DNA from: Fibrobacteria bacterium
GTDB lineage: Bacteria > Fibrobacterota > Fibrobacteria > UBA11236
Assembly: GCA_044338885.1 (NCBI GenBank)
Contig: JBIIWL010000001.1
Location: 1-29,244 of the forward strand
DNA: 29,244 bases
Direction of reading: 5' to 3'
In this document: positions 5,895 to 28,759 of the stretch, in pieces
How positions within the stretch are numbered: the first letter of the stretch is position 1
Layout of the letters: each line of letters opens with the position of its first letter
Notes under the pieces: generated by a model
Databases searched by the model: none
The model's input: the letters and a program-made list of their open reading frames with translations, nothing else
Told to the model about the DNA's origin: nothing
Position numbers and translations under genes: made by a program

Positions 5895-6668
5895 ATGTCC
5901 GCATCGCTGTTCTCTCAAGACACCGCCGTACGTCACGTGTTACGCCAACGCCCGCGCCTCGCCGAACACCTTGCGGCATTCGGGGCGGAGCCGTGGGAGC
6001 GCCCCCAGGCCACGCTCAACGAACTCTTCCGCAATCGTGAGACACTTGAAAAATTTATGGCCATGGCCGAAGCACTCCCCGTGCCCGAAGGGCCGCGGCA
6101 CTTGGAAAACTGGGTCGATCAACCGGCCTCGCACCTCGCCGACCACCTCACCCAACACCACCGCGACTTCTTCAACGTCACGCTCCCCGACATCGCGGGA
6201 CTATTTCGCGACTGGGATTCGCTCGACCCTGAGATCACAGAACTGCGCGATGACTTCAACCGCTTTATCGCGACCATGCGTCGCGAGATCGAGTATGAAG
6301 AAGAACTGTTCTTCCCCCGCGTACTGCGGTACGACGCCTGCCTGCGCGACCCGCGGGTGAACCCTGAATTCAACGGCGGGTCTTTACGGGTGGCGGTCGC
6401 CTACAGAAAAAGTCACGTCACCGGCGTTCAGCCCGAACTGCTGGACCGCATCACCACCCGGATGCGCGACACCCATGCCTACCAAGACGGCAATGCGTGG
6501 GCCGAGCTGTTGACCGCCCGCCTGGAAGATTTCAAGGGGCAATTTGAGGAGCACGAGCGCCTCGAAGCCGATGTGCTCTACCCCATGGCCCTCGAAATGG
6601 AAACCACGCTATACAACCTCTCGATTGCAGGCGTGAAAACCCCGGTGAATCAGGGGGTTGGTGTGTAG
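5895..6668 (+). CDS. Hemerythrin-domain protein, RIC/YtfE-like
   Basis: AAGGAG RBS then ATG at 5895. ScdA-like N-terminus, LADHLTQHH, EEELFFP and HERLEADVLYP segments typical of RIC hemerythrin domains. Confidence 0.7.
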   Translation: MSASLFSQDTAVRHVLRQRPRLAEHLAAFGAEPWERPQATLNELFRNRETLEKFMAMAEALPVPEGPRHLENWVDQPASHLADHLTQHHRDFFNVTLPDIAGLFRDWDSLDPEITELRDDFNRFIATMRREIEYEEELFFPRVLRYDACLRDPRVNPEFNGGSLRVAVAYRKSHVTGVQPELLDRITTRMRDTHAYQDGNAWAELLTARLEDFKGQFEEHERLEADVLYPMALEMETTLYNLSIAGVKTPVNQGVGV

Positions 6669-6698
6669 GCCTAAGGGATTTAGACTGGTTTTGGACGC

Positions 6699-6746
6699 AG
6701 TCCTCACCCCCGCCCCCTCTCCAGCATAGCTGGAGAGGGGGGCCCT
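6699..6746 (+). repeat. Palindromic REP/MITE-like element, copy 3
   Basis: The 48-bp core is identical to copy 1 except GG to GC. A 13-bp partial repeat, GAGGGGGGCCCTT, follows at 6769-6781. Confidence 0.9.
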
Positions 6747-6940
6747 CCCGCTGGCCTTACTCAAGAGTGAGGGGGGCCCTTGCTCTGGCCCCACAAAATC
6801 CCCCCTGTTTTCAGGGTATTCCAACCGTGATACAGGCCCTCGGTACGGCCTGTCTTTGCTAAATTGCCGAATCTCGATCTTTACCTACCAAAAAAAGACG
6901 AAGAGACGATTGTAGACAACACGCTAAAAGGAGTCCGGTC

Positions 6941-9745
6941 ATGGCGAAAGCCTCGAAATACGTTTACTTGTTCGGCGGAAAAAAGACGGACGGTGATTCG
7001 TCCATGCGCAACTTGCTCGGTGGCAAGGGCGCCAACCTCGCCGAGATGGCCAAGATCGGCTTGCCCGTTCCGGCCGGCTTCACGATCACCACGGAAGTGT
7101 GCACCCACTACTACGCCAACAAGCGCACGTACCCGGCCGCGTTGCAAAAGCAAATCGAGGACGGCATCAAGCACCTCGAGTCGAGCATGGGTTTCAAGTT
7201 CGGCGACAAGAACAAGTTCCCGCTGCTGGTGGCCGTGCGCTCGGGCGCACGCGATTCCATGCCCGGCATGATGGACACGATTTTGAACCTCGGCCTCAAC
7301 GATGATAGCGTGCAGGCTTTGGTGAAGGCGACCGGCAACGAACGCTTTGCGTGGGATTGCTACCGCCGCTTTGTGCAGATGTACGGTGACGTGGTGCTCG
7401 GCGTTCAGAAAGAAGCCGGCGAAGATCACGAGCCGTTTGAAGTTGCGATCGAGACCCTGAAAAAAGAACGCCTGGGCAATGCCCACGCCGACGACAACGA
7501 TCTCTCCGCTGACGATTTGAAGGAAATGGTCGCCCGCTTCAAGAAGCTGGTCAAAGACCGCACCGGCAAGAGCTTCCCGACCAATCCGTGGGAACAACTC
7601 AAGGGTGCGATCGGCGCCGTGTTCTCCTCATGGATGAACGACCGCGCGATCGTGTACCGCCGCAAGTACGGCATCCCTGCCGAATGGGGTACCGCCGTCA
7701 ACGTGCAGGCCATGGTGTTCGGCAATACCGGCGAAGAGTCGGGTTCGGGCGTGGCCTTTACGCGTGACCCGGCGACGGGCGAAAAAGTGTTCTACGGCGA
7801 GTTCTTGATGAACGCGCAGGGCGAAGACGTGGTGGCCGGCGTACGTACGCCCGACGCCGTGGCCAAGTTGGCCGACAAGCAGCCCAAGTCGTACAAAGAG
7901 TTGGAGCGCATCCGCGGCGTGCTCGAGAAGCACTTCAAGGACATGCAGGATTTCGAGTTCACCATCCAAGACAAAAAGGTGTTCATGCTCCAGACCCGCG
8001 CCGGCAAGCGCACGGGTGTGGCCGCGGTGCGCATCGCGGTCGAAATGGTGAAAGAAAAGTTGATCGATTGGGAAACCGCCGTGATGCGCGTGCCCGCCGA
8101 ACAGCTCGACCAGGTTTTGGCACCGATCTTCGACCGCACCGCGGCGAAGAACGCGGCCGTGATCGCAACGGGTCTGCCTGCAGGCCCGGGCGCCGCGACC
8201 GGCAAGATCTACTTCAGCGCCGAGAAGGCCGTTGAAGCCGCCGACAAGGGCGAGAAGGTGTTGCTCGTGCGCGTGGAAACCTCGCCTGAGGATTTGCGCG
8301 GCATGATCGCAGCCGAAGGCATTCTGACCGCGCGCGGCGGCGTGTCCTCTCACGCGGCGCTCGTGGCCCGTCAGATGGGCAAGGTCTGCGTGTGCGGCGC
8401 TGCCGCATTGCACGTCGACTACGACAAGCGTACGCTGACCGTCGACGGTAAGGTCTACCGCGAAGGCGACTTCCTCTCCATCGACGGCACGGCCGGTACG
8501 GTGTGCGCGGGTGAAGTCAAGACCGCCGCCTCCGAAGTGGTGCAGGGCTTGGTCGAAGGCGATGCCACGGCGCGCAAGAGCCGTACGTTTGCCAACTTCC
8601 AGCAGCTGATGAAGTGGTGCGCGCAGTCGACCCGTATGGTCGTCCGCACGAACGCCGACAACCCCGAACAGACCCGCAACGCCGTGGCGTTCGGCGCCGT
8701 GGGCATCGGCCTCACGCGTACCGAGCACATGTTCTTTGAAGGCGATCGCATCGATGCCATGCGCGAGATGATTCTCGCCGGCTCGGTCGAAGCCCGTAAG
8801 GTCGCGCTCGCGAAGTTGCTCCCCTACCAGCGCGCAGACTTCCTCGGCATCTTCAAGGAATTGAAGGGCCTGCCGGCGACCATCCGCTTCTTGGATCCGC
8901 CGCTGCATGAGTTCTTGCCTCACAGCAAAGAACAGCAGATGGACCTCGCGCGCAAGATGGGCATTCCGGTCGAGAAGATCATCGCCCGCGTGCACGAACT
9001 CCACGAGTTCAACCCCATGCTCGGTTTCCGTGGCTGCCGTCTCGGCATCCGCTTCCCGGAAATCACCGAGATGCAGGCGCGCGCCGTGTTTGAAGCCGCC
9101 GCACTGGCCCAAAAGGCCGGCGTGAAGGCCAAGCCCGAAGTGATGATCCCGCTGGTCGGCTTCAAGAAAGAGCTCGACTTGCAGGTCGCCATCGTGCATG
9201 AGACCGCCAAGAAGGTCGAAGCGGAAAAGAAGATCAAGCTGTCCTACCAGGTCGGCACCATGATCGAAGTACCGCGCGGCGCCCTCACGGCTGACGAAAT
9301 CGCGCACACCGCGGAGTTCTTCAGCTTCGGCACCAACGACTTGACGCAGACCACCATGGGCATGAGCCGCGATGACTCGGGCTCGTTCCTCGGCGCGTAC
9401 CAAGAAGAAGAGATCGTGAAGAACAACCCGTTCGCCAGCATCGATGAGACCGGCGTGGGCCAGCTCATGGAGATCGCGATCGAGAAGGGCCGCAAGACCC
9501 GTCCCGATATCAAGCTCGGCATTTGCGGCGAACACGGTGGCGATCCGGCCTCTGTGAAGTTCTGCCACAAGATCGGCCTCGCTTACGTGAGCTGCTCGCC
9601 GTTCCGCGTGCCGATCGCTCGCCTCGCGGCAGCGCAGGCTGCGATCGCCGACAAGCGTGCGGCCGCCAAGGCTGGTAAGGCTTCGAAGGGTAAGGCTAAG
9701 CCTGCCTCCAAGAAGACCGCCAAAAAGGTCGCCAAGAAGAAGTAA
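6941..9745 (+). CDS. ppdK: Pyruvate, phosphate dikinase
   Basis: [56 protein letters not shown], phospho-His motif [53 protein letters not shown]. Confidence 0.98.
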
Positions 9746-9783
9746 AAGTCGGGCGGAGTCATCCGCCGGATTTTGAAACGAAG

Positions 9784-9814
9784 AGGCCGGGGTCGCAAGA
9801 CTCCGGCCTTTTTT
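9784..9814 (+). terminator. Intrinsic terminator after ppdK
   Basis: AGGCCGGGGTC-GCAA-GACTCCGGCCT stem with a GNRA loop, followed by a T run. Confidence 0.85.
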
Positions 9815-9954
9815 GTTTAGCATCGTAAGGAAACGTTTCCAAACCTTTGCGAAGCATGAACCGCAGACGTGTAGAGCAAACACCTAAGGGTCGTAGCCCT
9901 CATTGTCTTGTAATTTGTCTGCTCTCACGACTTGAATCACCGACAGGAGTTTTC

Positions 9955-10780: not shown

Positions 10781-12034
10781 TCAACGCTTGGGCAACGGAT
10801 TCGGAGGGATGGGCGGACTGATGATCAGGCCACCGGTCGCGCCGTATTCGACGACAAGGCCTGGCAATTGACCAGAAGGGTTCGATGGATCGACGTTCGG
10901 ATCCCAAACGGACCCCGGGCCGGAATATGGCAGCGTCAGCGTATAAGTGGATTCGGGAAGCGGAATCGAAAACTGCCCCCTATACACCGGTGCTGAAATC
11001 GGCCAGCTGCCCAACGAACCGGCATACACGTAAAACGCAACGGTGTGCGCCGTGTCGGCCCGCGCATGGTCAAACTCCAGTGCACTCACCAGCGGTGACG
11101 AAGGGAACCAACCCGAAGCGCTACTGTCAGCCACCGTATCCCCGTTCACCACCATGACCAGTCGTTTGAAGAACAATGCCTGTTTGGCGGTCACAAGCGG
11201 ATCCGAAGATCTGAGCGTATCGGGCAATCGAAACCGTGCCACCATCGGCTGAAAACGATTGGTGAGGGTCATCGAGACCGGCTTCGTCTCAGCAATGATC
11301 ACGTTTTCGGCAACCGCGGTCCCGTGATGCATGGTCTCGCCGGCCGCATCAAGAGTTTTCACCTCGATGGTCCAGGTGCGTAGCGGCTTGACCGTATAGG
11401 ATTTCAGGATTTGCTGTGGCGTGGCGGTCGCCACCGTCAAGACTCCGTTCACATTTTCTGAAGCCACAATGGTGTCGCGGATCACGGAGTCTGAGGCACT
11501 ATTCGATGTCAATGTGATGATGAGTCGATCCATGCGGAGCGCCGCCGTCTTGGCCAACGGTGGTTCGGGAACGGCGTTTAGCCTGATGCTGAGGACGATG
11601 TGTGAAAGCGTCGTGGGCCCGAAATCATTCGGCACGGGAATGCTCACCTCGGCTGTATCCGTCCCGCCGGGCCCTACCGCGATCACCCGGTACGTCTCCC
11701 ATTCCGGCGTGCCGCTGGGGATACTATAACTGATGCGGCCTGTGGTCGTTTCGAAGCTGGCCACAAAAAACGACAACGCAGGTGTGATGGAATAGTGAGT
11801 GACAGGCCCGCCGGTGGAGTTCACGTTCAATCTGTACTGACCATTGATTGTGTCTTCGAGGGCGTCGGAATACGTAATAACGGGGGCCAGGGGTTCTTCG
11901 GTCTCATACTTAAAGCTCTCATCGATGACCGTATCGAGGCAGCCCACAAAGGCCAGCGCAGCGAACGACGCGCACAGCGCGACGAGCGATGAAAATTTGA
12001 ACGCGATGCGATAACCTTGAGCAAATCGTGACAT
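10781..12034 (-). CDS. Lipoprotein with putative Ig (He_PIG-like) domain; paralog of 12076-13458
   Basis: Lipobox FVG-C, the segment GGPVTHYSITPALS..FETTTGRIS, a beta-rich body and a Pro-rich C-terminus. Confidence 0.75.
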   Translation of the reverse strand: MSRFAQGYRIAFKFSSLVALCASFAALAFVGCLDTVIDESFKYETEEPLAPVITYSDALEDTINGQYRLNVNSTGGPVTHYSITPALSFFVASFETTTGRISYSIPSGTPEWETYRVIAVGPGGTDTAEVSIPVPNDFGPTTLSHIVLSIRLNAVPEPPLAKTAALRMDRLIITLTSNSASDSVIRDTIVASENVNGVLTVATATPQQILKSYTVKPLRTWTIEVKTLDAAGETMHHGTAVAENVIIAETKPVSMTLTNRFQPMVARFRLPDTLRSSDPLVTAKQALFFKRLVMVVNGDTVADSSASGWFPSSPLVSALEFDHARADTAHTVAFYVYAGSLGSWPISAPVYRGQFSIPLPESTYTLTLPYSGPGSVWDPNVDPSNPSGQLPGLVVEYGATGGLIISPPIPPNPLPKR

Positions 12035-12075: not shown

Positions 12076-13458
12076 TTAAGGAGGTGGTGGCGGAGGATTG
12101 GGGTCATCCGCCGATGCGGGGCCCGTGTAAGAACCAGGGGGCGAATACACGGTCGTACCCGGCACGTAAGGCCCGGTGAAGAAATACCGAATGATCGGGA
12201 GCGCCGGGTTCCATCCGTTGGCGGTACCGAAGAACAGAATCTCCAGCTGATCGATTTTATTGGCCGGAATATAGCGGGTACTGATCAAACGGCTCCCCGT
12301 CGTGGGAAAGCTGCCACCAGCGGCGAGCGTATCGTATAGGGTATCGCCGGCGCTCAGAATGGCGGCGCGCGTATACGTCAGCGGGATGTTGTACCCCGCA
12401 TACACATTCCCCACGTTGGCGTAGATCTGAACCTGCGCCGTGAAGGCCGCAAAGCGCGCGGCGAGATTGAGCGATGTGGAATGGACCGTGGCACTCGTAA
12501 GCATCGCGATCGTATCAGCCCCGACATGAATGACCGAGTCTTTGCTGTCGAGTGTCTTCACGGTGACGATGTACCCGAAGCCCGCGTACAACGGGTAAAA
12601 CTTGCCGAAGGTTTGCGCGGCGCCCGGTGACGCCACAAACCCTTCCGTGCCCGCGTCCACAGTATCACGCACCTCAAACCCGCCCGGCAACGTGGGTGTG
12701 ATGCTCACCATCAACTTGGACAGCGGAATACCCGAGGCCAAGCCAAGGTTCACGGACAACAGGGCGCCCGTCGCATCGCCGGGCAATGTCGTATTCTCGA
12801 CCACGGACAGCATGATAAAGGCTGTATCGCGACCTGTGGAGTTCTGCGCGATCACCCGATAGAGTGTGGCCGCCATGGGAGAAAACGGGGCACCCGAAAT
12901 TAAGCCCGTCGCGGTGTCAAACCGCATACCGGAAGGCAAGCCCGGCCTTAGGGTAAACACGTTCTCACCCCCGCCGGTTGAAATCACCGGGTGCGAGGCC
13001 TGCACGAACTGTGTGTCGACCACAGGGGTCAGGTAAGAAATGGATGGTTTGGGCTGCAAAATATGCAGCACGATCCGCGCCGTATCGGCCCCCCCAAACC
13101 CGACGCCGATGACGCGATGTGTGGTCACAGGCCAAGACACCGTTGGTGTTCCGGAAACCAACCCCGTCAGGGTATCGAATGAGAGACCCGGTGGTAAGGG
13201 CGGCTCCACGGAGAAGGACTTGACTTTGCCGCCTGAGTCCGACACGAACACGACGTACGACAGAGGCTGACCCACCGTATCAATCGAGGCGGGTGTGATG
13301 CCGATGATCGGTGGCGCCGGCGCCTTGTAGGTCAGGTCTTCGCCCAAACAGCCCGTCAGCACCAGCGACGGGAGAAGAACCGCCAAGAGGGCGGCCCCAA
13401 GACGTATCGGCCTATCCCACAGCCCCAAAAACCTCGATTTAGCGCCAAAAAACGCCAT
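12076..13458 (-). CDS. Lipoprotein with two putative Ig (He_PIG-like) domains
   Basis: ATG at 13458 with an upstream GGAAGG. Lipobox LTG-C. Repeats LPPGLSFDTLTGLVSGTPT and LPSGMRFDTATGLISGAP. Ends DDPNPPPPPP. Confidence 0.8.
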   Translation of the reverse strand: MAFFGAKSRFLGLWDRPIRLGAALLAVLLPSLVLTGCLGEDLTYKAPAPPIIGITPASIDTVGQPLSYVVFVSDSGGKVKSFSVEPPLPPGLSFDTLTGLVSGTPTVSWPVTTHRVIGVGFGGADTARIVLHILQPKPSISYLTPVVDTQFVQASHPVISTGGGENVFTLRPGLPSGMRFDTATGLISGAPFSPMAATLYRVIAQNSTGRDTAFIMLSVVENTTLPGDATGALLSVNLGLASGIPLSKLMVSITPTLPGGFEVRDTVDAGTEGFVASPGAAQTFGKFYPLYAGFGYIVTVKTLDSKDSVIHVGADTIAMLTSATVHSTSLNLAARFAAFTAQVQIYANVGNVYAGYNIPLTYTRAAILSAGDTLYDTLAAGGSFPTTGSRLISTRYIPANKIDQLEILFFGTANGWNPALPIIRYFFTGPYVPGTTVYSPPGSYTGPASADDPNPPPPPP

Positions 13459-13588
13459 GCTAACCCTTCCCAAAATCCATAGTGTCGCTCTTCATAGTAT
13501 AGAGCCGAAAGCCCCACTTCATGCCCTGTTTTCGCGAGCGGTCATCACATTCTGGGGACAAGACGTCCCGGAAACCGCAACGATCGGT

Positions 13589-16667: not shown

Positions 16668-17819
16668 CTAGGGCACTATCACCTTGTGGTTGAACCGGCC
16701 CGCGCGTGATGAGACGCGTACAACGTAGACCCCCGTTTTCTGCAGGGCAGCCGGTCGGAAGATTTCGTTGCTCGTCCCTCGCGCTGTAAACACCGGGGTA
16801 CCGTTCAGCGCGTAGACCCCTAGTGAATAGGGTTCCACGGCATGAATCACGAGTTCGCCGTTGCGGATCAACAGCGCGCCTTGAGCGCCGCCACTGGGCG
16901 GCCCATTCGCATTGAGGGATGTCGAGGTGTAACCGGCGAGGTATTCAAGACCGCGCAAGACGAGCCCTGCGAAAAACTCGGCGAAGGGCGTTGTGCCGCC
17001 CGTGTTTTGATGAATAAGGCCCGTGTAAAAAAAGCGGTTTCCCGTCGTTGAGTCTTCGCGGTACCAGGCCATGGGGTGCGGGTTCATAGACCACTCTGGC
17101 GTGAGGGCCTCGCTCAAGGTCGACTCATCGAGGTTGTAGAGCACGCGCACGCCGGGCCACGTGGGCGCCGTGAGCGTGAACGTGTACCACTCATCGGCGG
17201 CCACACGCATGGTGTCGGGGAGGCCCTGCAGAATGGGGCGGTTGCGCACGGCGGTATCCAACGTGCGCTTGATGGTGCCCGCCGGCGTATTCGGACCATG
17301 CAACGCATAGTGCATGCTCGACACTGTATCCCGAAACCAATTCCATTCGTTCGCCTCGTTGGCCGCCGAGGAATGAACGCCCAGCCAACCACGTTGCAAA
17401 CCGGGCGTGGTCATCCAGGTTTTAAACGCCGTTACAAACGGTTGAAAATTGGTTTGTACCACGTTGGCTTGGATGTACCCGCTCTGGAACCAATAATTGA
17501 ACAGGATGATATCGTAGGTCGCAAGGTTGGGGAGCGGCGTGCCGCTCCCGCTGAGCAGCGCGCTCCCGGAAATCGAATCGAGTTGAAAGCCAACCGCGGT
17601 TTTGAGTTGATTGAGCCGTTGGCTGAGCACGCGCCGTGAGGCCCCGTGCGCCGTATTGGCGGCATCGGTCCCGTTGATCACCAAGATGCGTTTACTGGAG
17701 AGCTGACTTTGGGGGTTGGGCGCGACTTGGGCCCTCACGGGGGTGGGCACGACGAGCGGGGTCCCTAAAACCATGAGGGCAAGGGCGGCCAATCGGGATT
17801 TTTGAAAATTGAACGACAT
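16668..17819 (-). CDS. Exported ThuA-like domain protein with T9SS-like C-terminal domain (paralog 1)
   Basis: AGGAG RBS, ATG 17819, signal peptide ending VRA. ThuA motifs WLGVHSSA, DEWYTF, LDES, HPMAWY, RFFYTGLIH. Tail YSLGVYALNG...TGVYVVRV...KVIVP. Confidence 0.8.
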   Translation of the reverse strand: MSFNFQKSRLAALALMVLGTPLVVPTPVRAQVAPNPQSQLSSKRILVINGTDAANTAHGASRRVLSQRLNQLKTAVGFQLDSISGSALLSGSGTPLPNLATYDIILFNYWFQSGYIQANVVQTNFQPFVTAFKTWMTTPGLQRGWLGVHSSAANEANEWNWFRDTVSSMHYALHGPNTPAGTIKRTLDTAVRNRPILQGLPDTMRVAADEWYTFTLTAPTWPGVRVLYNLDESTLSEALTPEWSMNPHPMAWYREDSTTGNRFFYTGLIHQNTGGTTPFAEFFAGLVLRGLEYLAGYTSTSLNANGPPSGGAQGALLIRNGELVIHAVEPYSLGVYALNGTPVFTARGTSNEIFRPAALQKTGVYVVRVSSRAGRFNHKVIVP

Positions 17820-18007
17820 TGCGGGCTCCTGAAGTGCGATGAATCTAACGCGCCAAGGCCTCCTGCGCATTGATTTTCCTTGATACGGGCACCGTTCTAT
17901 TCTGAATCGGGCCGCCTCTTTTTAAGCCATATACGCTCTTGACCCCATCGTTTTGACCCCGATTTGAGGGCTTATTGATCGGCATCGACCTTGCTTTCTA
18001 ACCCCGT

Positions 18008-20392: not shown

Positions 20393-21856
20393 TTAGATGC
20401 CCATCTCGAGACGCATCATGTAGTACCAGTCTTTCCACTCGATGTTGGTGACCGGCGCATACGACTGCTCCGCCTTCCAGTTCACGAGACGCTGGTTGTC
20501 GTTGGCGGCCTGAGCATAAATGGTCAAACCACGCACCACAGTTTTCTTTGCAAGCAAAGACCACTTCCAGTTGTCTTTAGTGACCTCATCAAGATCCCTC
20601 TTGAACAAGTTGGGGTCCTGTTCGGAAATCGTTCCAGACGGACCACTGTTCACGAAGGGCAGAGTCGGCATCTGGTAACGGTAGGCGTTCTCAATTGAGT
20701 TCGGAAACGGCGAGTTGTAGTACTCCATCTGGAACGAGAGGACGTCCAGGAAACGGAAGGTCGGTGCATTGAAGCCGAACATCACAGGCATGCGTTCCGT
20801 TTTCTTCTCGTAGTAGAAGTCGTAATCCTTCACACCGAGGAGCGCGATTTCACCGAACACCTTGAGATCTTGGGGCCCCAGCATGTCCATTGTGACATAG
20901 GCTTTGGGATCGAAAGATGCGCGAGCCATAAGTTTCACACCCTGGAAGGTGTAGAAGCTGGTGGTATCGTAGATGTAACGCGGGTTCAGTGTAGAACCAA
21001 GTCCGTTATCAACGCGCGCGCCCGTCAAATCGGTTGCCGGCAGAGAATCGACAAAATTGGGATTCTCCCGAATGATCCCGCTTCCGTTGCCGAAGTTGGT
21101 GGCATTCTCACCATAGCGAACCTTGGGCGAGGTTACGCTCGGTTTCACGGCGAGACAGTGATGACAAGACACGCCGCCACCCACCTCAACGCCGCGAGCC
21201 GGGAAGGCCGTTACGATGTAGGTCGGAGAAATGTCGCCGGTGGGCGGCAGATCACGTTCGACGGGGAGCAAGAACTCATGTTGAAGCTTACCGCCAAACA
21301 TGGGCACGTTGACCCGAACACCCTGCATCATGTAGCCGTTGCCCATGAGGTTCCAGCCACCCGAGCTCAAGTAGCCGGGATAGGCCCCCGAACGCAACAG
21401 GTATTCGCCGAGGTTCGCCGCATCAGCATTGTACTTGTAAGGGAAAAACCCCGCTTGCAAGGTCGCGACCGGTTTGGTCACGTCACCGAAGCGATACTCC
21501 ATGTCTGCACGGGAAATACCCGGGCCGAACTTGGTCGAGGTCACAAAGGGACGCACATTCGCTTCGCCCGGAGGGGGATTCTCGATGTCGTACCAGAACA
21601 TGCCACCCACGCCGGCGCGCACCTGGAGGCGGTCACTGACGTGGATTTCTTGAGTAACCCAAACCGAAGTCCGCTGGATGTAGTTCGCATCCTGGACGGA
21701 TTCATTCCATTTGCCCTTCACAACCTGACCGAAGTCAATCAAGGACCCCATGGACAAGGGCATCAATTTCACGTTATCCTCGGCGGGTTCCGCGAGGGTG
21801 GGGATTGCTGTCAGGCAGGTAGCCACGACCGCAGAAATCAGATTTCGAAAATTCAT
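20393..21856 (-). CDS. Putative large outer-membrane beta-barrel protein (paralog A)
   Basis: AGGAG RBS, signal peptide ending TLA, many amphipathic strands, the block GFFPYKYNADAANLGEYLLRSGAYPGYL, and C-terminal YYMMRLEMGI. Confidence 0.75.
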   Translation of the reverse strand: MNFRNLISAVVATCLTAIPTLAEPAEDNVKLMPLSMGSLIDFGQVVKGKWNESVQDANYIQRTSVWVTQEIHVSDRLQVRAGVGGMFWYDIENPPPGEANVRPFVTSTKFGPGISRADMEYRFGDVTKPVATLQAGFFPYKYNADAANLGEYLLRSGAYPGYLSSGGWNLMGNGYMMQGVRVNVPMFGGKLQHEFLLPVERDLPPTGDISPTYIVTAFPARGVEVGGGVSCHHCLAVKPSVTSPKVRYGENATNFGNGSGIIRENPNFVDSLPATDLTGARVDNGLGSTLNPRYIYDTTSFYTFQGVKLMARASFDPKAYVTMDMLGPQDLKVFGEIALLGVKDYDFYYEKKTERMPVMFGFNAPTFRFLDVLSFQMEYYNSPFPNSIENAYRYQMPTLPFVNSGPSGTISEQDPNLFKRDLDEVTKDNWKWSLLAKKTVVRGLTIYAQAANDNQRLVNWKAEQSYAPVTNIEWKDWYYMMRLEMGI

Positions 21857-21889
21857 GTTCGGCTCCTTTCGGGTTCGCTGTGCGGTCCG

Positions 21890-23254
21890 TTAAATGCCGA
21901 ACTGGAATCGGATGAGGTAGTACCAATCTTTGCCGTTGCGGTTGGTGATAGGCACCATGGTCGGCAAAAGCCCTTCAAGCACGTGGAAGGTTCGAATGTG
22001 ATCGCTCGCGGCTTGAGCGTAAATATCGATCCCCTTGGTGACTTTCTTCTTGCCGTACAAGGTCCACTTCCAATTATCGCGTTTGGCGGTGGCGTTATAG
22101 CGTGCCACAGAAGCAGGATCCGCAAAGTCCGGGAGCTGCCAGATGGGCAAGGCGGAGTACAGGGGCTCTTTAAAGCTGTTGAAGAACTGAGAGTTGTAGT
22201 ACTCGAGCTCAAAGGAGAGGACGTCGAGCATCTTGAACGTGGGGATGTTGAAACCACCCATGATCGGCATGCGTTCGGTGCGCTTCTCGTACATGTAGTC
22301 GTAATTCTTCCAGCCTAAGACCGCGACTTCACCGTACAGCTTCAGGTCTTCAGGACCGAAATATGCCTCGGGGAGCGAGATGAACGCCTTAGGATCAAAC
22401 GAGGCATTTGCAGTCAGTTTGACGCCTTGGAACGAATAGCGTTCCGAGCTATCGCGAATGGGCGCGCCCGTGGAGTCGAAACCCGTGATCACGAAGTTAT
22501 TGCCCGAAGGATCGTTGGGGGTTTCGCGGCTGGGTTTGACCGAAAGGCCGTGGTTCCAGGCCACACCGGCGCCCAAGCGGACACCTTCAACCGGAGTCAC
22601 GGAGGCCACCAAGGCCGGCGTGATGCTAAACAAAGGCGGCAGATCGCGCTCCATAGCCATCAGGAAGTCGACATCGACGCGCTTATCCCAATATTGGGCA
22701 TTCGCACGGAGACCTTGAACCATGTAGGCGGCGCTGTTCAGCATGCTCCAACCACCGGTGGTCAGGTAACCCGGGTAGGCACCCGAGCGCATCAGGTATT
22801 CGCCGAGGTTCTTGGCGTCAGGGTTGTACTTATAAGGGAAAAAGCCCATTTGCAACCGAGCCGTGGGGTTCTCGAGGTCGCCAAAGGTGTAAACACCCTG
22901 GGCCTGGGAGATACCGGGGCCAAACTGGGTCTGGCGGGAGGACACCGTGTTGGGATCGTTGGGAATCGAGTACCAGAAAATACCGCCCACACCGACGGTG
23001 AGCTGGAGTCTTTGGTTGACCACCGCTTCTTGAGTGATCCAGACACCCATACGCTGAAAGAAATCACCATTGAATTCGTAGTCTTTCGCGTTGTTTTCGG
23101 TGTAGCTGGTGCCACCTTTAACGATTTGACCATTATCAAACTGGCCAGAAATCGAGATGCGTTTGTATTCGATTTCTGCGTCCTCTGCCGCAAAGGCTGC
23201 AAAAGGCGCGGCGAGGACAAGTGCCGAGAGGGAAATGAGGCTACGTACGTTCAT
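21890..23254 (-). CDS. Putative large outer-membrane beta-barrel protein (paralog B)
   Basis: AGGAG RBS, signal peptide ending AFA, the block GFFPYKYNPDAKNLGEYLMRSGAYPGYL, and C-terminal YYLIRFQFGI. Colinear with paralog A. Confidence 0.75.
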   Translation of the reverse strand: MNVRSLISLSALVLAAPFAAFAAEDAEIEYKRISISGQFDNGQIVKGGTSYTENNAKDYEFNGDFFQRMGVWITQEAVVNQRLQLTVGVGGIFWYSIPNDPNTVSSRQTQFGPGISQAQGVYTFGDLENPTARLQMGFFPYKYNPDAKNLGEYLMRSGAYPGYLTTGGWSMLNSAAYMVQGLRANAQYWDKRVDVDFLMAMERDLPPLFSITPALVASVTPVEGVRLGAGVAWNHGLSVKPSRETPNDPSGNNFVITGFDSTGAPIRDSSERYSFQGVKLTANASFDPKAFISLPEAYFGPEDLKLYGEVAVLGWKNYDYMYEKRTERMPIMGGFNIPTFKMLDVLSFELEYYNSQFFNSFKEPLYSALPIWQLPDFADPASVARYNATAKRDNWKWTLYGKKKVTKGIDIYAQAASDHIRTFHVLEGLLPTMVPITNRNGKDWYYLIRFQFGI

Positions 23255-23520: not shown

Positions 23521-24702
23521 ATGACTATCAATAAGATGCTCGGATTAACCGTTTTACTGGCTTTGACGGGTTCGGTCTTTGCGCAGGGCGTTCCTGGAAA
23601 AGATCGCCCCATTCGCGTCGGCCAATTCAAGGGCACGGGCCAAGGCCGCTACTGGCACACCAACATTCACACCTCGGGTACCCAGCTGGCCGCCATTTTG
23701 GCTAACCCGGACAGCACCGGTTTGGGTGCCGATTTAGTGAAGCCCACCGCAGGCTTCACCTTCACCCAGTTTGGTCTGCCGTCCGGTACCGGTACGCCGA
23801 CCACCGTGCAGCGCGACGCCTTTATCACAGCCCTCGACTCGCTCGACGTGGTGCTGATTAGCTGCTTCGTGGAAATCGGTAACTCGATTGCCGCTGGTGC
23901 CCCGCGTACGGCACTGATGAACCACATTCAAACCAAGGGCTACATCGCCGTCCACGCGACGACTGACTCCTACGGTACCTGGACGGGCTTGGACAGCATC
24001 CACGCTGCACGCTTCCAGAACCACCCGTCTGCCGATCGTAACGGCCGCTTGCGCCTCGACTCGTTGGACCTCTCCTACGCCCTCGCCGATTCTAACTGGA
24101 AGTTCCTCAACAAATCGCTCGCCGATACGACCTTCCTCGAAGAATGGTTCTCGTTTACCACCAACGGTAACGTGATCCGTAGCTACCCGGGCGTGAAGGT
24201 GACCGTCAACATTGACGAAGCCTCCTATGCCGGTGGTTTGGGTGGCGCCCGCGCCATGGGTACGGATCACCCGATGAGCTGGTACCGTGTGCTGCCGACC
24301 GGTGGCCGCTTCTTCTACACCGCCGTGGGTCACCGTGCCAACATCTGGGCCGGTACCACCGCCAACCCCCGCTTCCTGCGCCGCCAGCTGTACAACGCGA
24401 TTTTGTGGACCTCTGGCTACGATACCACCAGAACAGTGTCGATCCAGCCCCAGGCCGCCAAGTCCCTCCGCTTTGCAGACGTGTCTCGCATGAGCGCTGG
24501 CGAAGGCGCCCTCACTGTGACCTTGCTGCAACCCGGCATCCACAGTGTTGAGCTCACGACTCTGGACGGCCGTCGCGTTGCGATCCGCCGTGGTGAAGGC
24601 CGCGATTTCGCGTACAACTTCTCGAGCCTTAACTCGGGCGTGTACTCGGTCGCCGTCAACACGCAGAATGGCCGTTCGAGCCAGCTCGTGACGATTCGCT
24701 AA
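23521..24702 (+). CDS. Exported ThuA-like domain protein with T9SS-like C-terminal domain (paralog 2)
   Basis: Signal peptide ending VFA. YWHTNIH, IAVHATTD, RFQNHP, EEWFSF, IDEASY, DHPMSWY, GRFFYTAVGH. Tail LTTLDGRRV...SGVYSVAV. Confidence 0.85.
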   Translation: MTINKMLGLTVLLALTGSVFAQGVPGKDRPIRVGQFKGTGQGRYWHTNIHTSGTQLAAILANPDSTGLGADLVKPTAGFTFTQFGLPSGTGTPTTVQRDAFITALDSLDVVLISCFVEIGNSIAAGAPRTALMNHIQTKGYIAVHATTDSYGTWTGLDSIHAARFQNHPSADRNGRLRLDSLDLSYALADSNWKFLNKSLADTTFLEEWFSFTTNGNVIRSYPGVKVTVNIDEASYAGGLGGARAMGTDHPMSWYRVLPTGGRFFYTAVGHRANIWAGTTANPRFLRRQLYNAILWTSGYDTTRTVSIQPQAAKSLRFADVSRMSAGEGALTVTLLQPGIHSVELTTLDGRRVAIRRGEGRDFAYNFSSLNSGVYSVAVNTQNGRSSQLVTIR

Positions 24703-24717
24703 AGACAATTGCCAACA

Positions 24718-24761
24718 GGCATAAAAAAAGGGCGAGGGTAACCTCGCCCTTTTTTTATGCC
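24718..24761. terminator. Intrinsic terminator, 20-bp perfect inverted repeat
   Basis: GGCATAAAAAAAGGGCGAGG-GTAA-CCTCGCCCTTTTTTTATGCC, with a GNRA loop. Confidence 0.88.
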
Positions 24762-24834: not shown

Positions 24835-26724
24835 ATGCATCGCTTTCTTTATTCAAAAATGGCTTCAGGGGCACTCCTCTTTTTGGGAGCACTTCTCGTT
24901 TATGTCAATACGATGTCTTCGGGGATTGGGACCGAAGATCCCGGTGAACTTGCCGCTGTTTTGCACACGATGGGCATTGCGCATCCCACCGGCTACCCCC
25001 TTTATACAATGCTGGGCTCGTTATTCGTCCGCATTCCCATTGGCGACTACGGCGCATGGCGGATGAATCTATTTGGAGCACTCCTCACGGCGCTCGCGGT
25101 GTATCAGTTTTGGGGGCTATTCCGGTTCATATTCTCAAACCGTGGTCGCACAGCCTTTTCATCGTCTACGCGCGCGCAAGGTTCCACAGAATTTCAACGC
25201 GGCCCTCTTTCCGATGAATGTGCGGCACTTGCCGCACCATTGATTTTCGCCTTTTCTGCCGTGTTTTGGCAGCAGGGTGTCTTTCTTGAAGTGTACGCGC
25301 TTCACCTCGTCTTTCTAGCCGTGGTGACGCGATTGTTCCTGACGTCCCTTGTTGAGGAAGGTCAACAAAAGGGGCGGCGCACGTGGCTGCTGTTCGCCTA
25401 TGTGCTGGGTCTGAGCTTTGCCCATCACATGATGACGTCATTATTAGCGCCGGCTTTCTTGTGGCTGTTCTTTCGCGTGCAGGGCTTCAATCGCCGCGCC
25501 TTCATGCTCATCGCCTACGCGATCCCACCCTTTGTTTTAGGCCTCACCGCCTACCTGTTTATTTTGATTCGCTCGGCTACGGCTCCCCTGATGAATTGGG
25601 GCGAGCCAAACAATTGGGGCGCGCTTTGGAAGCATGTCCGGGGCGCACAATACGGTGAGCAGATGTTCTCGTCGTGGGAGATCGCGGTTCGTAAGCTGAC
25701 TCAGTTTGCGGTTGATTTACCCGTTGATTTCGGGTGGCCGGTGATAGTGCTCGCTATCGCAGGGATTGTGGTTCTCTATCGTACGCTGCCGGGCTTATTG
25801 ATTTTTTCGGGGCTGGTGTTCGGCACGGGCTTGGTGTATGCGGCAAACTATGCGTTTGATGATCCAAATTTCCACCTCCACCCGCACTTTATGGTGGCCT
25901 TGTGGGCCGGGGCTGCACTTGGTGGATTATGGACAGTGAAGGCCGGAAAACTGACGCTCGCCGTGCGATTGATTTGCGCGCTGCTAGCTCTCTCTCCGCT
26001 GCTTTTGAATTTCAAGACGATGGATAAAAGCCGCGATACGCTGGTATCAGACTATTCACGCAACGTTCTCGAATCATTAGACTCAGGGGCGGTACTGTTC
26101 ACCAACGAATATGAACGACTGGGAAGCCCGGCTTTTTATTGGCAGATCGTTCAGGGTTATCGCAGCGATGCGGTGGTGCTTGACATTATTCTTTTGGGCA
26201 ACCCCTGGTTTTTCTCTCACCTTGAAGCGCGGCACCCATGGCTCATGAAGGCTTCACGCGCAGAGATTGCGGTGTATCGTGAGGAGCTCCATCGGTTTGT
26301 GCACGGGCCTCGTGATACGGTGGCGTACAATGCGCGACTGCGTGCTATGTTCCGTTCGATCATTGAGAACAGCCGAAGGGCGAATCGGCCCGTTTATTTT
26401 ACCTCGGGAATCAATGCGGACGAAGCACCGGGTTATCGCCTTGTGCCCTCGGGCATGGTGTTCCGGCTTGAACCGGACTCAAACACGACGGCCTACATTC
26501 CACCCCGCGACTTCACCCTCGCCCCCCTACCCTCACCTTCGGTCAATCGTCTCTCGGAACAAATACGAGTGGAGTATGCGGAAGGTTACGCCAATCAGGG
26601 CGCTCACGTGCTGGAACACCGCGATACGGTGCGCGCGGCAGAGCGGTTTCGCAAGGCGTTGGCGATGTATCCGAACTTTCCCGCCGTACGGGAGTTGTTG
26701 AATTCAATTGCGCCTATGCGGTGA
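24835..26724 (+). CDS. DUF2723 / TMEM260-like multi-pass GT-C glycosyltransferase with C-terminal TPR-like repeat
   Basis: EDPGELAA..MGIAHPTGYPLY, EVYALH, GLSFAHH, PLMNWG, many TM segments, and a C-terminal YANQG..AERFRKALAMYPNF. Start uncertain (24787 TTG, 24835 ATG or 24859 ATG). Confidence 0.82.
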   Translation: MHRFLYSKMASGALLFLGALLVYVNTMSSGIGTEDPGELAAVLHTMGIAHPTGYPLYTMLGSLFVRIPIGDYGAWRMNLFGALLTALAVYQFWGLFRFIFSNRGRTAFSSSTRAQGSTEFQRGPLSDECAALAAPLIFAFSAVFWQQGVFLEVYALHLVFLAVVTRLFLTSLVEEGQQKGRRTWLLFAYVLGLSFAHHMMTSLLAPAFLWLFFRVQGFNRRAFMLIAYAIPPFVLGLTAYLFILIRSATAPLMNWGEPNNWGALWKHVRGAQYGEQMFSSWEIAVRKLTQFAVDLPVDFGWPVIVLAIAGIVVLYRTLPGLLIFSGLVFGTGLVYAANYAFDDPNFHLHPHFMVALWAGAALGGLWTVKAGKLTLAVRLICALLALSPLLLNFKTMDKSRDTLVSDYSRNVLESLDSGAVLFTNEYERLGSPAFYWQIVQGYRSDAVVLDIILLGNPWFFSHLEARHPWLMKASRAEIAVYREELHRFVHGPRDTVAYNARLRAMFRSIIENSRRANRPVYFTSGINADEAPGYRLVPSGMVFRLEPDSNTTAYIPPRDFTLAPLPSPSVNRLSEQIRVEYAEGYANQGAHVLEHRDTVRAAERFRKALAMYPNFPAVRELLNSIAPMR

Positions 26725-26748: not shown

Positions 26749-27399
26749 TTAGTGTTTGTGTCCCGAGTGGTCTGAGTCGCGCGGTGGGATACGCGGCGGG
26801 TGCAGACTCATTTTGGCGAGCGAATCGGCCGTAATGGGAAAGTGGACCCACCGCTCAGTCGGGGCGCTGAAACGGCGGCGCACGGCATCGCCTTCAAATA
26901 AGAAGTATTCCATGATGGGGGGATGGTCGACCTCCGGTCTTTCATTCCAAACTTCGGAGTAGACCGAAATCTTTTTGGTCCCCGCTTTGATTTTGCCGCC
27001 TAAAACAAAGGTGTGATTCCCCGCCTGAATCGAATTTGAGTCTAGGCCATCATCGCGTCCGGTTCCGCCGAATTTCCAAGCCACGGCCGAGAGGTACACA
27101 GGCTTTCCATCGGCCTTGAGTTTGATTTTTTGTTGGAGGTAGTGCTCCATTCGAAGCTCGTAGCGGCGATAGGCTTGCACGCCGGTGTCAGCATACAAGG
27201 GGAAGGTAAAGACGGTGTTCATCAAATCTTGGGCATCGGCTTCAATGGTGATCGTCACCGAATCGGGCGCTTTGTACCGAATATCGGCATAGGCGAGGGC
27301 GAAATGTTGCGCGCGGGCCGCAAGGGGCGCGAGCACAAGGCTCAGTATCAAGAAACGGGCAAAACGAATCACAGAATCCTCCAAAAACCGGCGAATCAA
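26749..27399 (-). CDS. Exported hypothetical protein with His-rich C-terminus (DUF6702/HupE-associated-like, tentative)
   Basis: Signal peptide ending ARA-QH. Pattern A.I.Y.....TITIEADAQDL...YLQQKIKLKADG. Ends DHSGHKH. Confidence 0.65.
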   Translation of the reverse strand: MIRRFLEDSVIRFARFLILSLVLAPLAARAQHFALAYADIRYKAPDSVTITIEADAQDLMNTVFTFPLYADTGVQAYRRYELRMEHYLQQKIKLKADGKPVYLSAVAWKFGGTGRDDGLDSNSIQAGNHTFVLGGKIKAGTKKISVYSEVWNERPEVDHPPIMEYFLFEGDAVRRRFSAPTERWVHFPITADSLAKMSLHPPRIPPRDSDHSGHKH

Positions 27400-27574: not shown

Positions 27575-28759
27575 ATGTCACTATTTAAAACCTTTAAGTG
27601 GTATGCACCTCTGATCGCCATCACCATGGTCGCATCGCTTGCAGACGCCGCACCGATCCGGGTGGGGATTTTCAAATCGATTGGTACGGGGCGCTTCTGG
27701 CACACGAACATCCATACGGCCGGCTCCGCAATCGTCTCGATCCTAACCAACCCCGACTCCGCTAATTTGGGGCCGGATTTGATAAAACCGACGGATGGTT
27801 TCATTGCAACACAATTCGGCAAAGTGACAGGAACTAGCACCACGACCGATGCGGAAGAGGACGTGTTCTTCGCGGCTTTGGACAGCCTTGATGTTGTGAT
27901 CTTCCCGACCATCGTCGAAATGGGAAATGTGATTAGTCGACCTGAACAACGTATCCGACTCTTGGAGTATTTTCGCACACGGGGTGTTGTTAGCATACAC
28001 GCCACGACGGACAGTTATGGAGCCTGGCCCGCATGGGATTCGATCCATGGCGCGCGTTTCTTAAATTTTCCACCGAGTGACCGACAAGCAACATTGCACC
28101 TTGACTCGGATTCGAACAAAGAACCCTCTTGGAGAGCCCTAAACAGGGGGCTCCCGGATACCGCACGGTTCTTGGAAGAATGGTTTTCATTCACGACAAA
28201 CGCCGATGTCATTCGCTCATCACCAGGGCTTAAAACTACCGTCCGCATTGATGAAGCCTCCTATCAAGGCGGAATCGGGCAAGCCCGGACCATGGGCGCT
28301 GATCACCCAATGAGTTGGTACAAGGAGTCAGGTGATGGAGGACGTTTCTTTTATACGGCACTCGGACACAGGGCTCAGACTTATGCAGGTGTCACAAATA
28401 ATCCCACCACTCCGGAAGCAGCTTACTTCTTCCGCCGCCAGCTGTACAACGCAATCCTCTGGGCCGCAGGCGTGGACTCGACCGGTACCGTAGTCTCCGT
28501 TGCCGACCGTAATCGCACCGCACCCGCGCGTTTCGCCGATCACGCACAGGTGACGTTTAACACGGGGGCACTTACGGTTTCAATCCTGAACGATTCACCA
28601 AACACCGTTGAAGTGTTGGGGGTGAATGGTGGACGCGTGGCGTTAAAGCGCGCCGAGGGTCGCGCCGAGCATCGCTTCGACGCATTGCGCTCTGGCGTCT
28701 ATGTCGTGTCGGTCACGTCGGGTGGTCAACGCCTCACGCGTATGGCGGTAGTGGAATGA
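27575..28759 (+). CDS. Exported ThuA-like domain protein with T9SS-like C-terminal domain (paralog 3)
   Basis: Signal peptide ending ADA. FWHTNIH, SIHATTD, EEWFSF, IDEASY, DHPMSWY, GRFFYTALGH. Tail VLGVNGGRV...SGVYVVSV. Confidence 0.85.
   Translation: MSLFKTFKWYAPLIAITMVASLADAAPIRVGIFKSIGTGRFWHTNIHTAGSAIVSILTNPDSANLGPDLIKPTDGFIATQFGKVTGTSTTTDAEEDVFFAALDSLDVVIFPTIVEMGNVISRPEQRIRLLEYFRTRGVVSIHATTDSYGAWPAWDSIHGARFLNFPPSDRQATLHLDSDSNKEPSWRALNRGLPDTARFLEEWFSFTTNADVIRSSPGLKTTVRIDEASYQGGIGQARTMGADHPMSWYKESGDGGRFFYTALGHRAQTYAGVTNNPTTPEAAYFFRRQLYNAILWAAGVDSTGTVVSVADRNRTAPARFADHAQVTFNTGALTVSILNDSPNTVEVLGVNGGRVALKRAEGRAEHRFDALRSGVYVVSVTSGGQRLTRMAVVE

Follow-up and report, generated by a model that had tools for sequence, protein, structure and literature searches.

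A short-form TMEM260-like GT-C glycosyltransferase gene in a Fibrobacteria genome: a probable accessory enzyme, with a long-form paralog as the better candidate for sequon initiation

Human TMEM260, a protein O-mannosyltransferase of the PF11028/DUF2723 family with structures 9RQL, 9RQM and 9RQN, is the described enzyme most similar to the gene analyzed here. Loss of the human protein causes SHDRA syndrome. TMEM260 has a wrist/palm/fingers architecture and recognizes a linear sequon: Dol-P-Man is bound in the wrist, and the palm and the TPR hold sequon peptides in an extended state for glycosylation (bioRxiv 10.64898/2026.03.17.711096). D52 is the essential donor-aligning aspartate, and a D52A enzyme is inactive (PMC10214176; bioRxiv 10.64898/2026.03.17.711096). 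The second relevant system is the general O-glycosylation of Bacteroidota, whose initiating transferase was reported as undiscovered in papers of 2022 and 2025 (PMC12871550; PMC8729774). The published model has a core glycan moved en bloc by an oligosaccharyltransferase (PMC12871550).

We analyzed a window of 29,244 nucleotides from an organism that appears to belong to the Fibrobacterota rather than the Bacteroidota. The gene under study, P0001, occupies a single intact open frame between two ThuA-like genes. Its features and those of its surroundings are as follows.

23521..24702, + strand: upstream ThuA-like exported protein, for context only (PF06283, E 7.8e-18)
24734..24751, + strand: hairpin resembling a terminator, with a T-run after it, in the gap between the ThuA-like gene upstream and P0001 (consensus match only)
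24835..26724, + strand: P0001, short-subfamily TMEM260/DUF2723 GT-C glycosyltransferase gene, 629 aa (intact open frame, PF11028)
24835..26031, + strand: GT-C transmembrane core ('wrist'), residues 1-399, helices H8-26 to H371-396 in the AF2 model
24937..24948, + strand: DPGE motif, residues 35-38; D35 corresponds to TMEM260 D52 by residue-level alignment
24982..24999, + strand: HPTGYP motif, residues 50-55; H50 corresponds to TMEM260 H67 (donor site) by alignment
25651..25653, + strand: codon of Y273, which pairs in the alignment with the sugar-contacting Y267 of TMEM260
26032..26544, + strand: Rossmann-like 'palm' domain, predicted periplasmic, residues ~400-570 (AF2 strands and TMEM260 alignment)
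26035..26043, + strand: sequon DTL, residues 401-403, kept as a sequon in 14/64 homologues
26113..26115, + strand: codon of E427, which pairs in the alignment with catalytic base D441 of TMEM260
26314..26322, + strand: sequon DTV, residues 494-496, kept in 23/64 homologues
26554..26718, + strand: short C-terminal TPR ('fingers'), residues 574-628 (three DSSP helices and profile match)
26623..26631, + strand: sequon DTV, residues 597-599, kept in 26/64 homologues
27575..28759, + strand: downstream ThuA-like exported protein, for context only (PF06283, E 5.2e-22)
Contig C95, 7138-9894, - strand: long paralog, 918 aa, TPR-rich, outside the window

An earlier note on this DNA had proposed that the gene encodes a TMEM260/DUF2723-like GT-C enzyme, and its description of the gene held up well. 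The DPGE...HPTGYP motif, the DTL, DTV and DTV sequons of the soluble C-terminal half and the location between ThuA paralogs 2 and 3 are all as it described, and the multi-TM body, the TPR-like end, the Pfam family and the likeness to TMEM260 structures were each recovered below.

Residues 35-214 of P0001 matched Pfam PF11028 'TMEM260-like' with E 3.7e-34 and 118.5 bits, above the cut-off of 24.2. No other Pfam family was found at E<=0.1, with PF02366, PF13231, PMT, PMT_2, STT3 and Wzy_C all absent, and an NCBIfam search returned no family. The best structural matches in the AFDB Swiss-Prot set were TMEM260 of human, Dictyostelium and mouse (E 8e-23, TM 0.68-0.75), and the Foldseek match to the TMEM260 model ran the length of the protein, from residue 10 to 628. 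The match to ArnT was weaker, with E ~6e-7 against 8e-23. A Foldseek search of the PDB matched PglB, STT3, ArnT, ALG9/12 and Pmt4, with PglB ranked first in a copy (to April 2026) that lacked TMEM260; a later PDB copy, searched by sequence, gave 9rql. The short-form family profile matched this solved human TMEM260 with E 5.6e-57 over positions 12-469, and in the profile alignment the palm of P0001 paired with the first part of the Rl domain of TMEM260, as far as residue 483. Taken together, P0001 is a full-length bacterial homologue of TMEM260, GT-C in fold and with D35, H50 and Y273 kept at the donor site. ArnT/PMT_2-type and PglB/STT3 enzymes share with it the GT-C fold, an Asp in the first loop and, as predicted for P0001, a donor linked to polyprenyl phosphate, at Foldseek E ~1e-5 to 1e-6, but their similarity is much weaker, their Pfam families do not match P0001 and their soluble domain is a different one.

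The AF2 model of P0001 was highly confident (pLDDT 94.8, pTM 0.94). It showed approximately 11-12 TM helices, an alpha/beta domain (~400-570) and three terminal helices. Strands at 420-423, 447-450, 520-522, 534-539 and 542-547, with helices on their flanks, make up the palm. The terminal helices span 574-594, 598-611 and 616-628 (DSSP on the model). A single-sequence search of this end gave no Pfam TPR match at E<=0.1, whereas positions 579-624 of the short-form family profile matched consensus TPR proteins (E 8e-17 to 1e-7) as well as OGT TPRs. Judged by the profile, the C-terminal end is a genuine TPR, though a very short one.

In the profile alignment, six residues of P0001 pair with residues of TMEM260: D35 with D52, H50 with H67, Y273 with Y267, E427 with D441, R443 with R457 and D445 with D459. 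The D35 column was Asp in 63/63 short-form homologues, and H50, P51, G53, Y54 and P55 were invariant among 64. Y273 was Tyr in 49 of these and Phe in 15. R443 and D445 of the palm were invariant among short forms. P0001 retains every family-invariant residue: D35, E38, H50, P51, G53, Y54, P55, W145, E152, H198, R246, W255, R443 and D445. The base position was more variable in short forms, with D in 28, E in 20, Q in 6 and other residues in 10 of 64, so that 48/64 are acidic; in long forms the same column was Asp in 20/20.

The likeness to human TMEM260 takes in the Pfam family, the layout of GT-C wrist, Rossmann-like palm and TPR fingers, and the residues at D52, H67 and Y267 of the donor site. 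P0001 also has an acid at the base position, and its C-terminal domain is predicted from sequon content to be non-cytoplasmic, as in TMEM260. Differences were also seen. Identity to P0001 is ~17%, TMEM260 has five TPR helices against three, and its base is Asp rather than Glu. The column aligned to its phosphate-binding R264 is Gly or Ala in short forms, and an invariant Arg, R246, lies 24 residues upstream instead. TMEM260 is a single gene using a dolichyl donor, whereas P0001 has several paralogs and its donor would have to be undecaprenyl-based. TMEM260 serves IPT/TIG domains; we considered such domains as acceptors here by analogy and rejected them, as no PF01833 match was found in the source genome or in four congeners. 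We found no functional study of a bacterial DUF2723/PF11028 member in the literature searched, and we therefore infer the donor, acceptor and activity of P0001 by homology, at the low identity of the structural alignment.

The sequon D-[ST]-[AILVMT] was counted in 400-kb samples of single genomes, with exported proteins called by a crude home-made signal-peptide rule. In the source genome the enrichment was specific and genome-wide: the observed/expected ratio (O/E) was 2.66 in signal-peptide proteins, approximately 2.7-fold, compared to 1.12 in cytoplasmic ones, and control tripeptides gave 0.77-1.16. In exported proteins the enrichment was confined to D at position -1 and to A, I, L, M, T and V at +1, a profile that equals the published Bacteroidota motif at each position. 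These results are indirect evidence that the source organism uses D-(S/T)-x sequon glycosylation, with the sequon of the Bacteroidota system. P0001 resembles what that system calls for, as a predicted periplasm-facing transferase of a lipid-linked sugar with a sequon-reading human relative. It differs in that TMEM260-type enzymes move a single sugar rather than a glycan en bloc, and in that the distribution of short forms does not follow the sequon signal.

P0001 itself carries three sequons (DTL401, DTV494 and DTV597) against 0.8 expected from composition, a weak excess for a single protein, and all three lie within the C-terminal domain. Across 64 short-form homologues this domain held 102 sequons against 29 expected (O/E 3.55), and the TM region gave O/E 0.66. 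The sequon O/E of the C-terminal domain resembles that of exported and not of cytoplasmic proteins, which suggests that the domain faces the periplasm. Conservation of the three individual sequons was considered and rejected; each is kept in only 14-26/64 homologues, though their density is high. The two ThuA-like neighbors are sequon-rich, as the earlier note had said, with 6 sequons against 1.5 expected upstream and 5 against 1.6 downstream.

In the tree, DUF2723 proteins separated into long and short forms, two deep clades with 100/100 support. Long forms keep the D, E, H, R246, Y273, R443 and D445 positions in 20/20 sequences, and their homology to short forms reaches the palm. They differ in motif (FWDCGE...PHPPG.P against EDPGEL...HPTGYP), in an 'FTNG-DNDTFPLW' stretch that is invariant round the base Asp in two phyla, and in ~300 additional residues with Pfam TPRs. 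Of 251 Bacteroidota genomes at least 95% complete, all 251 contained the long form and ~57 a full-length short form. Within the phylum of the source genome the family was found in 122/124 high-quality genomes, mostly as a single long copy. Of families of this kind, only TMEM260-type GT-C enzymes were found in all genomes examined. A Fibrobacterota lineage and Ignavibacteria-type genomes also carry the sequon signature. This analysis further adds the division of the family into a long form that is universal and a short form that is dispensable.

The source genome carries three short-form paralogs, each in a separate supported subclade. Five congeners carried 0, 0, 2, 3 and 5 copies, which included tandem arrays and one copy with two stop codons. 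The positional ortholog of P0001 in a congener was 46% identical, compared to 58-81% for its neighbors, and orthologues in other assemblies were 46-72% identical. No short form was found in three sequon-enriched genomes, G044, G086 and G243 (O/E 2.65, 1.96 and 1.63), all of which have the long form. G044 belongs to the same genus, is 99% complete, and matched the source genome in its DS/DT split and in its position-specific sequon profile. The earlier note had named a correlation of DUF2723 with sequon enrichment across FCB genomes as a check; the short form does not follow the sequon signal. One Bacteroidota genome with the long form only, G277, showed no enrichment (O/E 1.05, 28 predicted exported proteins), an exception that may be a product of the crude signal-peptide rule. 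The clade of P0001 looks accessory: it is patchy, variable in copy number, evolving faster than its neighbors and dispensable for the sequon signal.

The genomic setting of P0001 was compared with that of other short forms. Adjacency to ThuA was seen in 2/78 loci of other genomes, both in close Fibrobacteria MAGs, and in one congener. The hairpin between the genes suggests that P0001 is transcribed separately from ThuA paralog 2. A functional link between P0001 and ThuA was rejected in favor of lineage synteny, because none of ~76 other loci had the adjacency and because of the intervening hairpin. In other short-form loci glnE lay directly upstream, overlapping or abutting (29 loci), with nusG-rplKAJL-rpoBC downstream; in an alternative setting the short form lay between alaS and dnaG-relA. 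These neighbors were rejected as a functional hint, all being housekeeping genes. No LPS or polysaccharide genes lay beside short forms in any of ~80 loci, and no donor-synthesis genes adjoin P0001.

Candidate genes for donor supply were found elsewhere in the genome. In this class the operon of the long form, on C95 in the source genome, also holds a GT4, a flippase-like protein, an ArnC-like GT2 and RmlD. The C95 GT2 is a full-length ArnC homologue (9hwj E 1e-50, GtrB 5e-30, DPMS 1e-16), and a TIGR00374 flippase-like gene adjoins it; a GtrA-type flippase was not found in the genome. Among other transferases, the assembly, which is 83.6% complete, yielded no gene of the Wzy_C (PglL/WaaL), STT3, PMT or PMT_2 type. 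One YfhO-like GT-C on another contig, C16, matched solely the C-terminal end of the profile, and that marginally; it is a rival candidate for the general initiating role.

The reading we favor, at somewhat better than even probability, is that P0001 is an accessory periplasmic glycosyltransferase dependent on an Und-P-sugar, acting probably on proteins and not as the general initiator. It would be an inner-membrane GT-C enzyme with a reduced version of the human TMEM260 architecture. The wrist would bind a polyprenyl-phosphate-monosaccharide donor through D35, H50 and Y273, the palm would supply the acidic E427 at the catalytic-base position, and the three-helix TPR would serve as the fingers. 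The ArnC/GtrB-like GT2 of the genome would make undecaprenyl-phosphate-sugar in the cytoplasm, and once this had been flipped P0001 would move the sugar in the periplasm to a hydroxyl in an extended segment of an exported polypeptide. As one of three diverged short paralogs, it may act on some acceptors only, or make a decoration peculiar to its lineage. General initiation at D-(S/T)-(A/I/L/V/M/T) sequons would be better assigned to the long, TPR-rich C95 paralog, since the long form is universal in the family and carries the donor-synthesis operon. Points against this reading are the Gly or Ala at the R264 column and a base column that is acidic in only 48/64 short forms; the results would also fit a glycan or lipid acceptor as well as a peptide. 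A short form could, moreover, duplicate the activity of the long form on the same sequon as its redundant isozyme.

The proposal of the earlier note was that P0001 itself could initiate. Its family, its fold and the sequon signal of the genome were confirmed, but the role of initiator was not. That P0001, as the enzyme or as a fully redundant isozyme, adds the linking sugar to D-(S/T)-x in exported proteins generally would agree with the right family, the conserved donor site and acidic base position, the linear sequon read by TMEM260 and the strong sequon enrichment of the genome. The sequon-rich exported neighbors, the sequons of its own C-terminal domain and the failure to find Wzy_C, STT3 or PMT-type transferases in the assembly also fit. 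Because G044, G086 and G243, in which no short form was found, keep the enrichment, however, and the profile of G044 is indistinguishable from that of the source genome, a general initiating role for P0001 is unsupported. The short form is present in only ~57/251 genomes of a phylum in which the glycosylation is described as phylum-wide (PMC12871550), copy number runs from 0 to 5 within one genus, with one copy interrupted by stop codons, no donor-synthesis genes are adjacent, and ThuA adjacency is limited to close relatives. We consider this role for P0001 quite improbable.

A non-protein acceptor also has to be weighed. P0001 would then act in the manner of ArnT, GtrC or YfhO on LPS or lipid A, on exopolysaccharide, or in branching of an attached O-glycan. 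Decoration of glycans or lipids is the role of many bacterial GT-C enzymes that use Und-P-monosaccharides, ArnT and PglB come next after TMEM260 among the structural matches, and the copy-number variation, tandem arrays and fast divergence are typical for surface-glycan decoration genes. The TPR is cut down to three helices, the acid at the TMEM260 base position is present in only 48/64 short forms, and in five congeners Wzy_C counts and short-form copies go in opposite directions. Against these points, the whole TMEM260 architecture is kept, including the palm and TPR that clasp the peptide, palm residues R443 and D445 are invariant, the structural match to TMEM260 is far stronger than that to ArnT (E 8e-23 against 6e-7), and LPS or polysaccharide genes were adjacent in none of ~80 loci. 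We regard a non-protein acceptor as unlikely. Gains and losses of copies within the genus, the congeneric copy with two stop codons and the faster evolution of P0001 relative to its neighbors could also indicate a decaying or non-catalytic duplicate with no present enzymatic role, but the frame of P0001 is intact, its AF2 model is very confident, every family-invariant residue is present and orthologues at 46-72% identity persist in other assemblies. Decay is the least probable of these explanations, and very improbable.

We tentatively put forward a wider proposal, possible but rather doubtful, that DUF2723 provides the missing periplasmic protein O-glycosyltransferase machinery of Bacteroidota, Fibrobacterota and Ignavibacteria. 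The long form would put the linking hexose on D-(S/T)-(A/I/L/V/M/T) in unfolded Sec-exported chains, using Und-P-sugar from the ArnC-like GT2. Short paralogs would be lineage-specific extra transferases that act on the same chains, at other acceptor subsets or adding a second sugar. Initiation would then follow the stepwise pattern of eukaryotic O-mannosylation, with no en bloc transfer by an oligosaccharyltransferase. The split between the clades turns the open question of the initiator into a concrete experiment on the long form, with short forms as contrast, and spares effort on the wrong paralog. P0001 is a natural minimal TMEM260-like enzyme, with a three-helix TPR and Glu at the base position, and could help to show how acceptor specificity is set in the family.

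The frame at 24835-26724 (+) was open and encoded a 629-aa protein, P0001. DPGE occupied residues 35-38 (from nt 24937), HPTGYP residues 50-55 (nt 24982-24999), and three D-[ST]-[AILVMT] tripeptides, the sequon published for Bacteroidota general O-glycosylation, lay at residues 401, 494 and 597. PF11028 'TMEM260-like' was the sole Pfam family matched (E 3.7e-34), and an NCBIfam search gave no useful family. The gene and its surroundings were as follows:

23521-24702 (+): ThuA-domain gene, upstream flank
24734-24751 (+): terminator-like hairpin with a T-run, between ThuA paralog 2 and the DUF2723 gene
24835-26724 (+): DUF2723 gene, encoding P0001
27575-28759 (+): ThuA-domain gene, downstream flank

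The open frame, motif positions, sequon tripeptides, Pfam match and ThuA-domain flanks therefore show that the earlier note described the motif, sequons and position of the gene correctly. The window gene is a true TMEM260 homologue of the short type, and it is intact.

An AF2 model of P0001 built on 64 homologues was very confident (pLDDT 94.8, pTM 0.94) and comprised three parts:

Residues up to about 396: multi-helix membrane core
Residues about 400-570: alpha/beta domain with five strands
Residues 574-628: three terminal helices

The best three matches among AlphaFold Swiss-Prot models were TMEM260 of human, Dictyostelium and mouse, aligned from end to end (E about 1e-22, TM 0.68-0.75), and ArnT and PglB came next (E about 1e-6). 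Foldseek comparison with a PDB copy without TMEM260 returned only GT-C enzymes (PglB, STT3, ArnT, ALG9/12, Pmt4). The 64-homologue profile matched solved human TMEM260 (9rql, 9rqm, 9rqn; E 5.6e-57). The relationship to TMEM260 put forward in the earlier note thus held by Pfam family, by full-length model and by the 9rql match.

In TMEM260, Dol-P-Man is held by D52, H67, R264 and Y267 in a transmembrane 'wrist', the catalytic base is D441 in a Rossmann-like 'palm', the acceptor is bound by five-helix TPR 'fingers', and the substrates are extended peptides with a linear sequon (bioRxiv 10.64898/2026.03.17.711096). P0001 aligned D35 with D52, H50 with H67 and Y273 with Y267, and in the palm E427 with D441, R443 with R457 and D445 with D459. 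Across the 64 homologues D35 and H50 were invariant, the Y273 column held Y or F, and the catalytic-base column was acidic (D or E) in 48 of the 64, with Glu in P0001. Unlike TMEM260, the short bacterial family had G or A in the R264 column; R246 was invariant. The C-terminal TPR-like segment is real, since the last 46 profile positions matched consensus TPR proteins (E 8e-17), but it is short, with three helices in P0001 compared to five in TMEM260. The C-terminal domain of the short forms contained 102 sequons against 29 expected, and the membrane part was not enriched (O/E 0.66), which supports a probable periplasmic location for this domain. We infer donor, acceptor and activity: P0001 is most likely a periplasmic, Und-P-sugar-dependent transferase acting on extended exported polypeptides. 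No IPT/TIG domains were found in the genus, so the acceptor class of human TMEM260 is not applicable.

Four PF11028 genes were present in the assembly. Three were of the short type, namely the window gene and its paralogs on contigs C109 and C261; the 918-aa protein on C95, which has Pfam TPRs, was of the long type. A maximum-likelihood tree of 86 sequences split long from short forms with 100/100 support, and each of the assembly's three short paralogs fell in a supported subclade of its own. Long forms had two motifs of their own: FWDCGE...PHPPG.P, and 'FTNG-DNDTFPLW' surrounding the base Asp. The second was unchanged in 20 of 20 sequences drawn from two phyla. PF11028 occurred in 147 of 151 genomes of the phylum (122 of the 124 high-quality ones), nearly always as a single copy whose frame stayed open over about 930-1080 aa; short forms were seen there as extra copies only, and in this genus only. 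Congeners had none (G044, G098), two (G040), three (G036) or five (G034). All 251 Bacteroidota genomes, each at least 95% complete, matched P0001, with a full-length short-form match in only about 57; the remaining matches covered only residues about 10-240, in frames of 880-1070 aa. The window gene is an accessory paralog.

The premise of sequon-rich secreted proteins was upheld. ORFs were called throughout the Fibrobacterota-like assembly, which has 313 contigs totalling 2.0 Mb and is 83.6% complete. With exported proteins classed by a simple, crude signal-peptide rule, 282 predicted ones held 832 sequons where composition alone predicts 312 (O/E 2.66), compared to an O/E of 1.12 in 892 cytoplasmic proteins. 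Five control tripeptides gave 0.77-1.16 in both classes alike. In exported proteins D alone was enriched at position -1 (2.6-fold), and A, I, L, M, T and V were enriched 2.0-3.5-fold at position +1, where S was marginal at 1.4 and other residues were at or below about 1. This profile is the published Bacteroidota sequon. The closest named relatives of the window were Fibrobacteria MAGs (67% and 51% identity), so the signal reaches beyond Bacteroidota; pooled Ignavibacteria, Chlorobi and Kapabacteria loci showed it too (2.46 vs 1.17). Window genes listed with sequon enrichment were 3525-4355, 10781-12034, 12076-13473, 16668-17870 and 26749-27399 (-) and 23521-24702 and 27575-28759 (+). The two barrel proteins at 20393-23254 showed no such enrichment.

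Dispensability of the short form was assessed in five genomes, each sampled singly over 400 kb.

Exported-protein sequon enrichment and DUF2723 content
G044 (same genus, one contig, 99% complete): long only; O/E 2.65 (z 12.8)
G086 (same phylum): long only; O/E 1.96
G243 (Bacteroidota): long only; O/E 1.63
G260 (Bacteroidota): short and long; O/E 1.94
G277 (Bacteroidota): long only; O/E 1.05, from 28 exported proteins only

Neither the DS/DT split (3.06 and 2.15 in G044 vs 2.96 and 2.18 in the own assembly) nor the position-specific profile distinguished G044 from the own assembly. Insofar as an enriched motif is a readout of a working system, the sequon system can do without the short form. 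G277, without enrichment, reflects either failure of the predictor there or an inactive system. Over 420 kb its loci (L097, L105-L114, L185-L194) yielded just 28 predicted signal-peptide proteins, an unusually small number.

The long paralog heads an apparent operon:

C95 (L084) 2907-9894 (-): long DUF2723 gene (918 aa, TPR), then on the same strand GT4, a TIGR00374 flippase-like membrane protein, a 320-aa GT2 and RmlD

The GT2 was homologous over its full length to ArnC (9hwj, E 1e-50), GtrB (5e-30) and DPMS (1e-16). Und-P-monosaccharide glycosylation classically has three parts, a synthase, a flippase and a GT-C enzyme. As judged from sequence, the C95 operon has this arrangement, so the organism should be able to make a suitable donor. 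All four family- and order-level loci examined kept the full order, as did, apart from a missing RmlD, a locus from another family of the class; the remaining three loci examined at class level had GT2 directly after the long gene. The arrangement was absent from more distant families and from the eight Bacteroidota loci inspected. A He_PIG Ig-repeat protein lay near the operon on the opposite strand.

Reviews state that the transferase of the sequon system is unknown (PMC12871550, PMC8729774), and our literature search found no paper testing the DUF2723 family in this role. The earlier note had proposed P0001 as a candidate initiating O-glycosyltransferase. That role is plausible for the family, but the evidence points to the C95 long paralog rather than the window gene. 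Among other transferases, Wzy_C, PMT_2, STT3 and PMT had no match in the 83.6% complete assembly; Wzy_C genes were present in most relatives, G044 included, so their absence may be lineage loss or incompleteness. A rival candidate for periplasmic glycosylation is a marginal YfhO-like GT-C protein (C16, about 6200-8619 (+), 799-aa open frame), whose match to the YfhO profile (E 6e-9) was confined to that profile's C-terminal end. Its frame adjoins an RmlD-like gene, and similar frames occur in most relatives. Wzy_C (O-antigen ligase/PglL-type) and short-copy counts were 0/3 in the own assembly, 0/5 in G034, one weak sub-threshold match/3 in G036, 2/2 in G040 and 4/0 in G044; this opposition across five congeneric genomes could be chance or a genome-size effect.

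ThuA adjacency was found only in L005, L069 and G034, and the terminator-like hairpin was just past the ThuA-like gene, 84 bases ahead of the DUF2723 start codon. The G034 positional ortholog kept the barrel-barrel-ThuA-DUF2723 order and was 46% identical, compared to 58-81% for its neighbours. Another G034 short copy (C19) was interrupted by two stops, TAG and TAA. Short forms of other lineages sat behind glnE or beside alaS, both housekeeping genes. In three congeners (L216, G034:C2; L217, G036:C19; L219, G040:C2), short copies lay in tandem arrays of one to three, always at the same site, flanked by alaS and dnaG-relA. The gene glnE encodes glutamine synthetase adenylyltransferase and belongs to nitrogen regulation. 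At 29 loci of Ignavibacteria and some Bacteroidota (within L008-L082, e.g. L073:6962-9826), the short DUF2723 gene started within a few bases of the glnE end, upstream of nusG-rplKAJL-rpoBC.
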